Origin: Escherichia phage AugustSocin
Direction: 5' to 3' (one strand)
Sequence record: MZ501052
DNA: 64,000 nucleotides
The notes beneath the pieces are model-generated. The model was not told where the DNA came from. It worked only from the letters and a program-made list of their open reading frames with translations, and made no database searches. The position numbers were made by a program, and so were the translations under genes. Position 1 is the first letter of the stretch, and each line of letters starts with the position of its first letter. This document shows, piece by piece, positions 2,651 through 46,690 of this stretch.

Positions 2651-2844
2651 ACTAATTCCTTTAATCCGTAAATAGGAGACAATTCATCACCCATACGAAG
2701 GTCTTCATTTCCATCTACCCAGGAAACAATATAAGCCTCTTTTATTTGAACACCACTCCATTTAAATGGAGGTAGAACCTTAGAAATTAATCCAGGTATA
2801 CCAACTCCCTTTAATTCAACAGTTTGACCTAAAAAGAATTTCAT
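2647..2844 (-). CDS. hypothetical protein
   Basis: 65-aa ORF, overlapping stop/start with neighbours. Confidence 0.5.
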   Translation of the reverse strand: MKFFLGQTVELKGVGIPGLISKVLPPFKWSGVQIKEAYIVSWVDGNEDLRMGDELSPIYGLKELV

Positions 2845-3131
2845 TAGAACCTCATCTGAAAACCATGCGATTTAACATTACCGCCGCCAATATCAGAAAT
2901 ATTAATTTCACGCGCAATCGAAGGATCGATGTCAATTTCACGATTAAGTTTAGCGATAGCTAAAGTATCACGCCCATTTACAGTACGGAACTCTAAAGGA
3001 CAAACCACATCAACGTAATTTTTAATCGATTCACTGGTAGGTTGCAAATGAGCAGGAAGGTCTTTGGGCGCCTTTGAGAAAACCACTTCACAGAAATTTT
3101 TACGGGTATCAAAATAAGTAGTCATAAACAT
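2844..3131 (-). CDS. hypothetical protein
   Basis: 95-aa ORF preceded by GAGG ribosome-binding site. Confidence 0.55.
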   Translation of the reverse strand: MFMTTYFDTRKNFCEVVFSKAPKDLPAHLQPTSESIKNYVDVVCPLEFRTVNGRDTLAIAKLNREIDIDPSIAREINISDIGGGNVKSHGFQMRF

Positions 3132-3172
3132 AGTATTTTCCTCAGTAAGGGGCCGAAGCCCCTCATTTTATT

Positions 3173-3550
3173 TTAAATATCAAATTCATTAAGAACTACA
3201 TCAAAGATTGCTTCAAGATGCTCAGGTTTAGCTCTGTTACTCAGAATATGACGAATCCAAGTTTTAACCAAAAGCTTGCGATTATCACCATTCCAGCAAG
3301 GATGAGTCCCTAAATCGCGTTGACGAAAATCATCATCCAGAGCGATTTTAAAGTTGGAACCTTCCATTGTGATTGAAACCGTGATGCCATTTTCAAATCG
3401 CATATAAACGTAATTAGGAGTCATATACTGTTCAATTTCGCATACTGATCCATTTTGATGTTTCCAAAGGCAAATAGTATCAATAGAACCTGCAATACCA
3501 TTAGAAACATATTTACGTTCAAAGTTGATGTAGTTCATTTTATTCTCCAA
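3173..3550 (-). CDS. hypothetical protein
   Basis: 125-aa ORF downstream of an early promoter-like element. Confidence 0.6.
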   Translation of the reverse strand: MENKMNYINFERKYVSNGIAGSIDTICLWKHQNGSVCEIEQYMTPNYVYMRFENGITVSITMEGSNFKIALDDDFRQRDLGTHPCWNGDNRKLLVKTWIRHILSNRAKPEHLEAIFDVVLNEFDI

Positions 3551-3564
3551 GATGTTTAATTGCG

Positions 3565-3605
3565 GTACAGGTATATAATATCATATCCTGTACCAAAGTA
3601 AACAA
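3565..3605 (-). promoter_or_regulatory. early promoter with hairpin enclosing -10
   Basis: Minus-sense GTTTAC, then GGTACAGG...CCTGTACC inverted repeat around TATTATATAC. Confidence 0.5.
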
Positions 3606-3938
3606 TTATTTTACTACTTTCCAGTGTTGCATGTCAAGTTTACCGACTTTTTTCATCTTCTCAATTAAGCGTTCGGCACGTTGGCGAGCTGTAACATAAT
3701 GCCATTCGCCTAATTCATTTTGTTCAATTTTTCCAACGATTACTGTATTCAATTCATAAATCCAACCAGTAAAGAAATTATGAACTTGAATTGTAAAGGT
3801 GAAATCTGTTCCCATACCTTCTGTTGTTTCTACTTCAATAATATCACCTTCAACTGCCATTAAGAACCACATAGTTTCATCATATTTACCATTGAAGCAT
3901 TTAGTTTTAACTGCAGCGTTCAGATTAATCGTTTTCAT
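3606..3938 (-). CDS. hypothetical protein
   Basis: 110-aa ORF downstream of an early promoter-like element. Confidence 0.6.
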   Translation of the reverse strand: MKTINLNAAVKTKCFNGKYDETMWFLMAVEGDIIEVETTEGMGTDFTFTIQVHNFFTGWIYELNTVIVGKIEQNELGEWHYVTARQRAERLIEKMKKVGKLDMQHWKVVK

Positions 3939-7494: not shown

Positions 7495-8884
<1,390 letters not shown>

Positions 8885-8888
<4 letters not shown>

Positions 8889-9115
8889 TTATTTTTCTCA
8901 ACCAATGATTGAATATAATCATGCAGGTCTTTAGATGCTTTACCCCACTTATTTTGATATTCATTTTTGAGATTAGCGCGTGATTGAGCTAATAAAACAT
9001 CATTAGTTGGAGGTAAAGATTCTAATCGTTGAATCTGTCGTCCATAAATCATTGCAGCCATCTCGGATTCATAAATTAATCCTTTTAGATGTTCAAATTG
9101 ATACCATGAAATCAT
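8885..9115 (-). CDS. hypothetical protein
   Basis: 76-aa ORF. Confidence 0.5.
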
Positions 9116-17257: not shown

Positions 17258-18084
<827 letters not shown>

Positions 18085-18095
18085 ATTATCTCCTA

Positions 18096-18428
18096 TTAAA
18101 AAGGATCAGGAACATATCCGCTAGCTTTAATCATTTTAATTAACGTTAACATTCCTTTGTTAACTGCTCGTGAGATTTCATCAAAAACTTCATCACTAAA
18201 AAGTTCTAACACGCCCTTCTGAACTTTTAATTTACAGCCAACAATTTCTTCATCGCCTATAGTAAATTCATTACCACCAATTCCACCGAAAAACTTAATT
18301 ACACCAGTTAACTGTCTTCCACGAGAATATGGGTCGTGTGATAAAGTAATATGAGTCACCCCGGGTACAGTTTTAAATTGGCAGCGAATATTTACTTGTG
18401 AAATTCCAGTTACATGAATGTCAGACAT
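18096..18428 (-). CDS. hypothetical protein (frd.2 position)
   Basis: 110-aa ORF. Confidence 0.55.
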   Translation of the reverse strand: MSDIHVTGISQVNIRCQFKTVPGVTHITLSHDPYSRGRQLTGVIKFFGGIGGNEFTIGDEEIVGCKLKVQKGVLELFSDEVFDEISRAVNKGMLTLIKMIKASGYVPDPF

Positions 18429-20495: not shown

Positions 20496-21130
20496 TCATA
20501 GCTGGCATAATTCACAATACTCTGGGTCTTCGAGAGGTATCCAACCTGAGTTGAAATACTTTACCATCGATTTAGCAGTTGTATCAGTTATATTTATATT
20601 ACCTTTAACTCTTCGCCATCCAGGAGTTTTACCGTACAGATTAGAGGATAATAATAACACATAATTCTCGTAAGCAATATGAGATAATTTCCAAGACTCT
20701 ATATTAGCTCGTGATGTTTTCCAAGGTCTAAAATCGTCACGGTTCATATAATTAGCCAATCTCATATGCTCTCTAACTTCCGGGTCTTTGGCTGGATGAG
20801 TTTCACCACTCACACCAAATCCGCCGCCAGCATATACCAGATTAAAATAGTCTGGATTATCTCTGGCATTTACTTCAAGTTGGTATTTTCGCTCTGCTTC
20901 AATAACATCCAAATCATCATCAATTTGAATTATTTTAACGCTCGGTTTTTGAAGCATTACCGCATTTAAAAATCTTTTTTGTTTGCACGAACTCCAGTAT
21001 TCCTTTCCGGAAGAGTCATATATTATTCCATTCTCAAATGAGCAATTTAATTTACTGCCGATATAGTATAGTACGGCGGAGTCTTATTTTTGACACGGTC
21101 TTCAAATGTAAACCAATATACTATATTCAT
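20496..21130 (-). pseudogene. possible frameshifted gene at the segG position (GIY-YIG-like remnant?) between genes 32 and 59
   Basis: 27-codon ORF (MNIVYWFTFEDRVKNKTPPYY...) coupled to gene 59 stop; the 153-aa track ORF frame is open a further 43 codons upstream with no start codon and contains LYYIGSKLN. Confidence 0.45.
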
Positions 21131-21131
21131 A

Positions 21132-38565: not shown

Positions 38566-38646
38566 TCACTGGCGTCCGAAGACGCCTTTGGTTTTAAGAT
38601 TGTTACGATAGAACTGCATCACATGTTCGTTATGGAAATTACTCAT
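38566..38646 (-). CDS. stp: Stp peptide (26 aa)
   Basis: 26-codon [29 protein letters not shown] with ATG overlapping ndd stop; matches remembered T4 Stp length and sequence. Confidence 0.8.
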
Positions 38647-39103
38647 TAGTATGCCTGTAAAACAAATTTAAAGTTATCAGCCAACATACGGTTCATTTCT
38701 TCAAGTGTTTGATACTCAGAATGATGATTACGAGTAAACGCTAAAGCTAACTGTCCTTTTCCAAATCCCGTCGTCAGAGGTTTCATCTTAGAAGCAGGCA
38801 GATAAAATACTGTGTATGGAACATTGTTATTTGCAATAGTACGTGCAAGCTGAGACCGACGTTGACGAATATGACTTAGAACCGCGCTGAATCCTTGCTT
38901 AGAACGCTGATTACCTACATAAAATCGTGCAGACACACATGGATTACTAAATGGACGACCATCTAATTTACTCACTAAAAGTAAAATCCAGGTTTAGATA
39001 AAATATCTTTGTGTGGAACTCCCAAAAACCACTCACCACCCTTGATTGTACCAATAACAGTAGCGCCCGCATTATTCAGATCAGTAACAGTCATATATTT
39101 CAT
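38646..39103 (-). pseudogene. ndd: ndd (nucleoid disruption) interrupted by an apparent -1 frameshift
   Basis: 42-codon [45 protein letters not shown] stops at 38975; the 109-codon frame resumes there without ATG (track start is GTG); 42+109=151 codons; shift lies in A4 run at 38977-38980. Confidence 0.6.
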
Positions 39104-39162
39104 ATTAATTTCCTCTAAAATTATTTTCTACTCCAAGGCCGCATGAATACACGGCCATTAAA

Positions 39163-44870: not shown

Positions 44871-46690
44871 TACTGGCTCATCCATTCTTTACGAAGGTCA
44901 GCATTATCTCCCATGAGCATTTCAAAAAGCTCTTTCCAGTTCTCAGGAAGTTTAACAACATCATATACTGGGTTTTGAATCATCTCACGATATTCAGATT
45001 TTTCCAAAGAGCCAAGTCCCTTAATATAACGGATGCTATGTTTAGGTAGAGCATCTTTGGCACTCTCATATTCAGCGACTGTATAAAACCATTCTTGTTT
45101 TTTACCGACCTGAGCGATGATTACAGGAGTTTTGACAAAGCGAATTCGTCCTTGCTCAAACAATTCTGGCCAATTACTAAAAAATCCGAGCAGAGAAGGA
45201 TAAATGCTTCCTAGACCATCATGGTCAGCATCAGTCATAATAGCAATATTATGATAATTCAAGTTTTCAGCTTTTTCACCGAGAACTAATCCAGTGATTG
45301 CGCAAATATCAAATAGTTCTTTGTTTTTAAGCATATCTGCATAAGACATACCCCAACTGTTGAGAACTTTACCGCGCAATGGATAACCACCATGAAGTTC
45401 TTTATCACGAACATCAATAAGATATCCGATAGCAGAATCACCCTCAGTCAAGAAAAGAGTAGTATCAGCATCTTTACCGCAAAGATTCGCTTTGATATGT
45501 TTATGAACCTTAGCTTTAGAAGCCTTTTTAGCTGCTTTAGTTTCTGCTGCTTTTTCTGCCGCCAATTTACGAGCCAAAGCAGCTTCAATAATTGGCATCA
45601 GAATTGCTTCATTATTCAAAATAGCACGTGAAATCTTTTTAGCATCAAGCTGAATATGACTACGGATTTCACCAAATGGAGAAGTCAAACGCTCTTTAGT
45701 TTGAGAATCAAATCGCATGTTTTTCATATCACGGACAAACATAACGATAGTCAAACATTCTTTAACGCGTGCTTTAGTCACATCAATTTTGAACTTACGT
45801 TTGATTTGTGGAATAAGGTCTTCACAAATATCATCCATAACACAGTCAATGTGATGGCCACCATTCTTAGTGTGAATGTTATTCACATAAGTTAATTGAC
45901 GAAAACCATCCGGTGAACGACCAACCGCAATAGAGCAATTTTCTTGTTCTTGAACGATAGCATGCTCATCATATTGGCGTGCATATTTCTTAAAATTGCC
46001 CTGAACCTTTTTACCATTAAAGGTAAATTGAATATCAGGATAAACTACTGCAAGTGTCTGGAGACGATCTAGTGTAATGTCAAGATAAACTTGGGACAGC
46101 TCATTAGTTTCAAATGACATAAAATCTGGAATGAAAGTAACACGAGTTCCTTTCCATTTTCCAGGAATAGTTTCCCAGGATTTATTTTCCATGCCATTTG
46201 AACAACGAACTACAATATTATTTTGACCATCGCCAGTTTCACCGACAAACATCACAGAAAAAATGTTAGTTAAACTAGAACCAACACCATTCATACCACC
46301 GGTGACACGTTCTTTATCATCACCAAAGTTACCACCCGCTTTTGGAATAGTCCAGGCAGCAACTGGACCAGGAATTTCTTCACCGGTAGGTGTTTTAACC
46401 ATCGCTTGTGGAATACCACGACCGTTATCTTCAACTGTTACTTGATTGTTTTTGATAGTAACATTAATTTTATTTGCGAATTTAAACTTAGTACGAATAC
46501 CTTCATCTACTGAGTTATCGATAATTTCATCAATAAGCTTAACAAGACCAGGTACATACTGAACACTTTCCCATTTACCAAACAGAAAGCGCTCATGCAT
46601 TTCATTAGCAGAAGAGCCAATATACATGCCGCTACGCTTTTTGATATGTTCAATATCGCTCAGAATTTTAATTTCATTCTTAATCATCAC
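44870..46690 (-). CDS. 39: DNA topoisomerase II large subunit, single uninterrupted ORF (39 and 60 equivalent fused)
   Basis: 606-aa ORF with GHKL ATPase and Toprim-like regions; no separate gene 60. Confidence 0.93.
   Translation of the reverse strand: MMIKNEIKILSDIEHIKKRSGMYIGSSANEMHERFLFGKWESVQYVPGLVKLIDEIIDNSVDEGIRTKFKFANKINVTIKNNQVTVEDNGRGIPQAMVKTPTGEEIPGPVAAWTIPKAGGNFGDDKERVTGGMNGVGSSLTNIFSVMFVGETGDGQNNIVVRCSNGMENKSWETIPGKWKGTRVTFIPDFMSFETNELSQVYLDITLDRLQTLAVVYPDIQFTFNGKKVQGNFKKYARQYDEHAIVQEQENCSIAVGRSPDGFRQLTYVNNIHTKNGGHHIDCVMDDICEDLIPQIKRKFKIDVTKARVKECLTIVMFVRDMKNMRFDSQTKERLTSPFGEIRSHIQLDAKKISRAILNNEAILMPIIEAALARKLAAEKAAETKAAKKASKAKVHKHIKANLCGKDADTTLFLTEGDSAIGYLIDVRDKELHGGYPLRGKVLNSWGMSYADMLKNKELFDICAITGLVLGEKAENLNYHNIAIMTDADHDGLGSIYPSLLGFFSNWPELFEQGRIRFVKTPVIIAQVGKKQEWFYTVAEYESAKDALPKHSIRYIKGLGSLEKSEYREMIQNPVYDVVKLPENWKELFEMLMGDNADLRKEWMSQ

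Follow-up and report, generated by a model that had tools for sequence, protein, structure and literature searches.

A one-base deletion splits the nucleoid disruption gene ndd of Escherichia phage AugustSocin at a site where the gene has broken repeatedly

The early gene ndd of Escherichia phage AugustSocin is split in two by the loss of a single T from a run of five, and we consider it roughly 85% probable that the allele is real and has lost its function very recently in evolutionary terms. In the BASEL collection, AugustSocin has the name Bas38 (MZ501052). The phage came from sewage in Switzerland, with E. coli K-12 as the isolation host, and its genome was read on an Illumina NextSeq 550 to a coverage of 86x; the main text of the paper that describes the phage does not mention ndd (PMC8594841). 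The product of the gene, Ndd, displaces the host nucleoid to the cell periphery and, when expressed, arrests cell division (PMC3040692; the function is also given in the T4 RefSeq note), and the same paper still calls its mode of action unknown. That ndd is split in AugustSocin is already known from the annotation by the depositors, in which the 42-aa product is QXV76312.1 ('nucleoid disruption protein Ndd part 1') and the 109-aa product is QXV76311.1 ('nucleoid disruption protein Ndd part 2'), in a genome of 167,411 bp whose gp52 is QXV76307.1. What goes beyond the existing annotation is that the same deletion has recurred independently and that lesions cluster at codons 38–43 of the gene. 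The window analysed here is a stretch of 64,000 nucleotides (64 kb) of the AugustSocin genome.

Both pieces of ndd lie on the minus strand and score above the gathering threshold (25 bits) of the Pfam family PF06591, Phage_T4_Ndd (Table 1). The gene occupies the same position as T4 ndd (NP_049879, 151 aa), to which it is ~94% identical at the DNA level, and it shares with T4, KIT03 and Ec_O157kw the order ndd.1, ndd, stp, ac, 52.1 and gene 52 along the early-gene strand. The original prediction had described a 42-codon reading frame with a good start context followed by a 109-codon frame lacking an ATG, and this is what is found: an ATG preceded by GAGGA opens the first frame and a GTG opens the second. 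The normal translation start of ndd is intact. The first frame ends in GGA TTT TAC TTT TAG, giving a protein that ends in PGFYF; the TAG occupies 38977–38975 and is followed directly by a second in-frame stop, TGA, at 38974–38972. The first G of the part-2 GTG is the last base of the part-1 TAG (a UAGUG overlap in the mRNA). No Shine-Dalgarno sequence stands at a useful spacing before this GTG, the nearest GGA ending 11 nt upstream. At the far end of the gene, the ATG of stp overlaps the TAA stop of ndd (TAATG). The uninterrupted frame of ~147–154 codons expected of the Ndd family is absent here; nearly all of the 130 clusters of Ndd homologues have lengths of 147–154 aa, or of 163–170 aa where an upstream start was called. 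Because the deletion of one T splits the reading frame, we class the AugustSocin ndd as a putative pseudogene or null allele rather than as a functional member of the family.

Table 1. Features of the ndd locus of AugustSocin (positions in the window)
Feature	Position	Strand	Evidence or remark
ndd part 1, 42 codons, ATG start	38975..39103	-	PF06591 profile positions 1-43, E 7.5e-18, 65.3 bits
ndd part 2, 109 codons, GTG start	38646..38975	-	PF06591 profile positions 47-154, E 2.6e-70, 235.7 bits
GAGGA Shine-Dalgarno sequence, 7 nt 5' of the ndd ATG	39111..39115	-	identical in T4 and KIT03
Lesion: TTTT run (AAAA on the plus strand), TTTTT in all intact relatives examined	38977..38980	-	
Tandem stops TAG TGA in the part-1 frame	38972..38977	-	read from the sequence
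stp, 26 codons	38566..38646	-	PF08133, E 2e-21

The DNA of the locus was aligned with that of KIT03, T4, Ec_O157kw, bov9_1 and five further contigs, the latter being those that encode the same ndd.1 protein. Exactly one T is missing from the run at 38980–38977, the intact relatives all having TTTTT where AugustSocin has TTTT, and no second indel separates AugustSocin ndd from the 152-aa alleles. Together with the PF06591 matches, these alignments bear out the prediction that ndd is split by a single-base deletion in a T run. With one T added, a TTA codon for Leu stands again between F42 and V44 and, as had been foreseen, one continuous protein is restored. The accompanying argument that 42 and 109 codons add up to 151, the expected size of Ndd, is correct as a sum but not for the restored gene, which has 152 codons. 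This length is that of the KIT03/bov9_1 allele class, to which the parental allele of AugustSocin belonged, whereas T4 Ndd has its 151 aa through a separate, unrelated 3-nt indel about four codons downstream.

The restored protein is 100% identical to the intact Ndd of vb_EcoM_bov9_1 (MT884006.2), from which AugustSocin differs by being short of one T at codons 42–43, and to that encoded on a contig from SRR13132431, with 7 synonymous and no non-synonymous differences in the gene. Compared with the intact KIT03 gene (AP018932.1), the restored ndd has 6 synonymous differences and one substitution, V29T, which is also the sole amino-acid difference from Ec_O157kw and is a known polymorphism common to AugustSocin and bov9_1. 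Relaxed constraint has left no trace in the split gene, and the frameshift is either very recent or an artefact.

The same lesion occurs elsewhere. Among 1.84 billion representative proteins, a profile search picked out an Ndd fragment of 42 aa (P0148). Its source is a metagenome contig of 25.3 kb (ENA ERZ18533897 NODE_1378, coverage 5.3x), which carries the identical one-T deletion and has the same 42-codon product length. Its ndd differs from that of AugustSocin at 19 of 458 positions (96% identity; 93% over 5.4 kb), the differences nearest to the T run lying 31 nt upstream and 4 nt downstream, and it has GTA instead of GTG after the stop and hence no restart codon. To judge by these differences, the deletion in this contig arose independently and its carrier is a recent mutant. 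A different lesion is present in FL33 (PP400788.1) and FL34 (PP400789.1), sibling phages from Danish pig faeces with MG1655 as host. They have an 11-nt deletion in ndd (CTGGATTTTAC) that has AC microhomology at its flanks and reaches as far as the same T run (locus positions ~725–740); their annotation gives a 41-aa 'hypothetical protein' and a shortened 'Ndd', and the FL34 fragment (P0164) falls in the same protein cluster as P0148. In a Logan contig from SRR19918129, one T has been added to the other T5 run of ndd, at codons 26–27. All of these broken alleles are frameshifts in the N-terminal third of the gene, and their backgrounds differ from that of AugustSocin.

Broken ndd alleles are thus, in the deposited records, recurrent but rare: there are a few among ~450–560 deposited T4-like genomes and 130 protein clusters. 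With two queries carrying the 4-T allele, an extra T was found in every record among the best 40 and the best 12 matches listed, and none of the 346 and 447 covering records reached at least 99% identity, in a collection that does not contain AugustSocin itself. The exact 4-T pattern was absent from IMG/VR, the JGI metagenomes and GTDB, where the 5-T control was itself found only 1, 1 and 0 times, which leaves this search almost no power; the pattern also demanded the GTG, and the ERZ18533897 carrier has GTA. No further decay was seen in any broken ndd allele, which fits short-lived null alleles that come from a slippage-prone site and are later purged.

The 'truncated Ndd' (117 aa) of WL-3 was considered as a further broken allele and set aside, as by-eye alignment suggests a late start call in an apparently intact reading frame. 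Separately, a 58-aa N-terminal Ndd fragment (P0163) from the library of representative proteins shows many T-to-I, A-to-V and P-to-L/F changes. Reads with C converted to T (bisulfite-type), if assembled as native sequence, would be expected to give such a pattern, and the fragment looks more like an oddity of the database than like biology.

The clustering of lesions could also be read as a sign that loss of Ndd is positively selected, Ndd being costly or sensed by a host function, so that the lesions at codons 38–43 would reflect selection and not only a mutational hotspot. At least three independent lesions, two cases of the one-T deletion and one of the 11-nt deletion, fall within 12 nt, with a fourth in the other T5 run; AugustSocin, FL33 and FL34 were all isolated on derivatives of K-12 MG1655; and expression of Ndd is highly toxic to E. 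coli (PMC3040692). We nevertheless regard this explanation as unlikely, because ndd is intact in many phages that were isolated on MG1655 (KarlGJung and FL12 among them), broken alleles have the rarity described above, and T runs and microhomology suffice to explain the mutations. The broken alleles have also accumulated no decay, as expected of alleles that do not last. A bolder version, which is a little less likely again, makes codons 38–43 a recurrent natural 'off-switch' of a protein (by its predicted fold a GIY-YIG-type one that binds or nicks DNA) that is costly on some hosts or sensed by host defence, with independent wild T-even lineages losing Ndd through the same T run and the sister run, and AugustSocin an escape or adaptation variant and not a neutral loss. 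No literature was found that links ndd to defence escape or to frameshifts. AugustSocin does show a weak sensitivity to EcoRV that is unexplained and common to T2 (PMC8594841, Tevenvirinae section), and no link between this sensitivity and the ndd lesion was found. As for its origin, the lesion may date from the sewage, or from isolation or propagation on K-12.

It is improbable that the missing T is a sequencing or assembly error and that the phage really has five Ts and an intact 152-codon ndd. A one-base change in the length of a homopolymer is a classic type of error, and a gene that is otherwise undecayed is also what an artefact would look like. However, Illumina NextSeq sequencing at 86x is not prone to errors at 5-base runs, and the depositors curated the split deliberately as 'part 1' and 'part 2'. 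The assembly is also clean elsewhere: of the homopolymer runs in the window, 405 are 5 bases or longer, and the other ~400 such runs break no conserved gene. Indels were parsed at the DNA level between the window and Ec_O157kw (~49 kb) and T4, with a truncation check for each CDS, and in these scans of ~110 reference CDSs ndd alone among the conserved genes was interrupted at a homopolymer. The sole other broken gene was that of a segG-type homing endonuclease, with a 2-bp TA insertion outside a homopolymer, and the remaining indels of lengths that are not multiples of 3 lie between genes, sit where two genes meet, or offset each other within divergent segments. Finally, an independent, SPAdes-style metagenome contig has the same deletion, and FL33 and FL34 have other lesions in the gene. 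The original prediction had left the choice between a true ndd-null allele and a homopolymer error undecided; coverage, annotation, clean assembly and recurrence together strongly favour the former.

In the course of these scans, apparent extra frameshifts in the C-termini of pseT.1 and frd and in the N-termini of 39.1 and ndd.3 were rejected as junction or start-site variation or as alignment artefacts. A match with '2 stops' at 18084–18428 was likewise attributed to natural variation or an alignment artefact and not to a frameshift.

Several other variants in the window are recorded in their own right. The segG-type GIY-YIG homing endonuclease gene (20496–21131, minus strand) has its TA insertion near 21069 relative to T4 segG, which causes a frameshift after about codon 22. 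The remaining 153-aa frame is annotated as 'putative homing endonuclease' in AugustSocin, and as the 153-aa product is encoded on 60 contigs, the truncated form may be widespread. At ~8586–8900 (minus strand), a small extra frame of ~95 codons lies between pseT and pseT.1 relative to T4. At that junction the C-terminus of pseT.1 is changed (EKNK versus EKK before the stop) where a run of six As becomes five, a natural junction variant and not an error. At ~45205–45270, ~65 nt stand in place of T4 positions 2793–3911, which comprise the gene 60 bypass region, 60.1 and mobA. Most likely, to go by this alignment gap, the 39 and 60 genes for the large topoisomerase subunit are fused as in Ec_O157kw and are read without a translational hop.

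Least probable of all is that the split ndd still works, either through a −1 frameshift at C UUU UAG or through an active, re-initiated 109-aa fragment with or without the 42-aa peptide. A −1 shift would re-read one U and give F-L-V, exactly the wild-type protein; a stop codon in the A site favours slippage in the P site; a 9-bp hairpin begins ~10 nt downstream; and the UAGUG overlap has the geometry of termination-reinitiation. In that a single −1 shift at a T run restores the full protein, the locus resembles programmed −1 frameshifting of the E. coli dnaX type. Unlike that system, ndd has no canonical slippery heptamer (X XXY YYZ; the site reads UAC UUU UAG), no conserved stimulators and no shift configuration in relatives, all of those examined being in frame except for the lesion-bearing records. 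For the shift, tRNA-Phe would need to pair anew with CUU despite a mismatch at the first position, no Shine-Dalgarno-like stimulator is present, and the local RNA fold is not unusual (106-nt fold, z = -1.31). As intact alleles such as KIT03 carry the same hairpin sequence, the hairpin probably did not evolve for frameshifting. Against an active restart product stand the independent carrier of the one-T deletion, which has GTA and no restart codon, and the loss from the 109-aa fragment of the invariant GFYF and of three predicted core strands. Two other forms of rescue were ruled out: amber suppression, because a TGA follows the TAG in frame, and transcriptional slippage, for which a run of 4–5 nt is far too short.

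Under the preferred reading of a recent loss-of-function allele, one T would have been lost from the T5 run by replication slippage. Translation from the normal ndd ATG would then end after codon 42 at the TAG, with the TGA directly behind it, and the remaining 109 codons would stay untranslated or be translated in small amounts by termination-reinitiation. Since the GTG overlaps the stop and a Shine-Dalgarno sequence is absent, part 2 is probably untranslated or only weakly re-initiated.

The stop falls directly after a motif, G39-F40-Y41-F42, that is invariant in 36 aligned homologues down to 52% identity, and a 109-aa part-2 product would be without G13 and G39–F42, 5 of the 31 residues that do not vary in the family. 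The 152-aa allele was modelled with AlphaFold2 at a mean pLDDT of 69.8, residues 1–110 scoring 70–87. In this model, residues 1–44 form a helix (6–12) and three strands (15–21, 24–26 and 39–44) that lie beside strands 56–63 and 97–103. The 42-residue product would accordingly hold, in the predicted structure, one helix and the first three β-strands of the core sheet only, and any part-2 product would lack those three predicted strands. If the model is right, neither fragment would be able to form the core alone. As an observation on the family as a whole, the C-terminal third of Ndd (residues 110–152, with the motif NRMLxDNFKF) is its most conserved part, yet its pLDDT in the model is below 50; its folding may depend on a partner, be it DNA, a membrane or another protein.

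T4 ndd mutants are viable and the gene is dispensable. By analogy, the expected phenotype of AugustSocin would be that of an ndd-null phage, which is viable and fails to shift the nucleoid of its host to the cell periphery. We infer 'null' here, because the UAG/GUG overlap could allow reinitiation and split fragments occasionally complement one another. The overlap of stp with the ndd stop may couple the translation of stp in part to that of ndd, in which case the premature stop could lower it.

The predicted core of Ndd is structurally similar to solved GIY-YIG domains. In a Foldseek search with the Ndd model, GIY-YIG proteins ranked first, but not significantly. No Pfam family other than PF06591 matched Ndd at E values up to 10, hhalign of the Ndd profile against EndoII gave a probability of 0.1, and the Ndd profile search of the 1.84 billion representatives returned Ndd-family proteins only and no GIY-YIG family; no literature linking Ndd to GIY-YIG was found in the library searched. 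The candidate motif residues are 'GFYF' (G39-F-Y41-F) and, after ~17 residues, 'FYVG' within R60-F-Y-V-G64, of which R60 is invariant in the Ndd family and F61, V63 and G64 are nearly so. Further invariant candidates are R80/R83, E136 and N138/N144, the E/N region being modelled at pLDDT below 50; the match of all these residues to GIY-YIG catalytic positions was judged by eye and not by structural alignment. We regard the resemblance as a lead from predicted structure, short of demonstrated homology. Should it hold true, the stop codon in AugustSocin falls between the strand of 'GIY' and that of 'YIG', and a GIY-YIG-like fold would be a testable lead on how Ndd acts on host DNA.

Like the classical T4 ndd mutants, the AugustSocin allele is a loss of function in a viable phage; unlike those, which were made in the laboratory, it comes from a natural isolate. 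In itself the finding is minor: one lost base disables an early gene that is known and dispensable, as is already flagged in GenBank. However, Bas38 belongs to a widely distributed reference collection, and its users should know that it is a natural ndd-minus T-even phage, which can be compared with ndd+ siblings such as Bas37 (KarlGJung). For the gene family, the several independent lesions that fall together in 12 nt mark the stretch at which ndd is prone to break.
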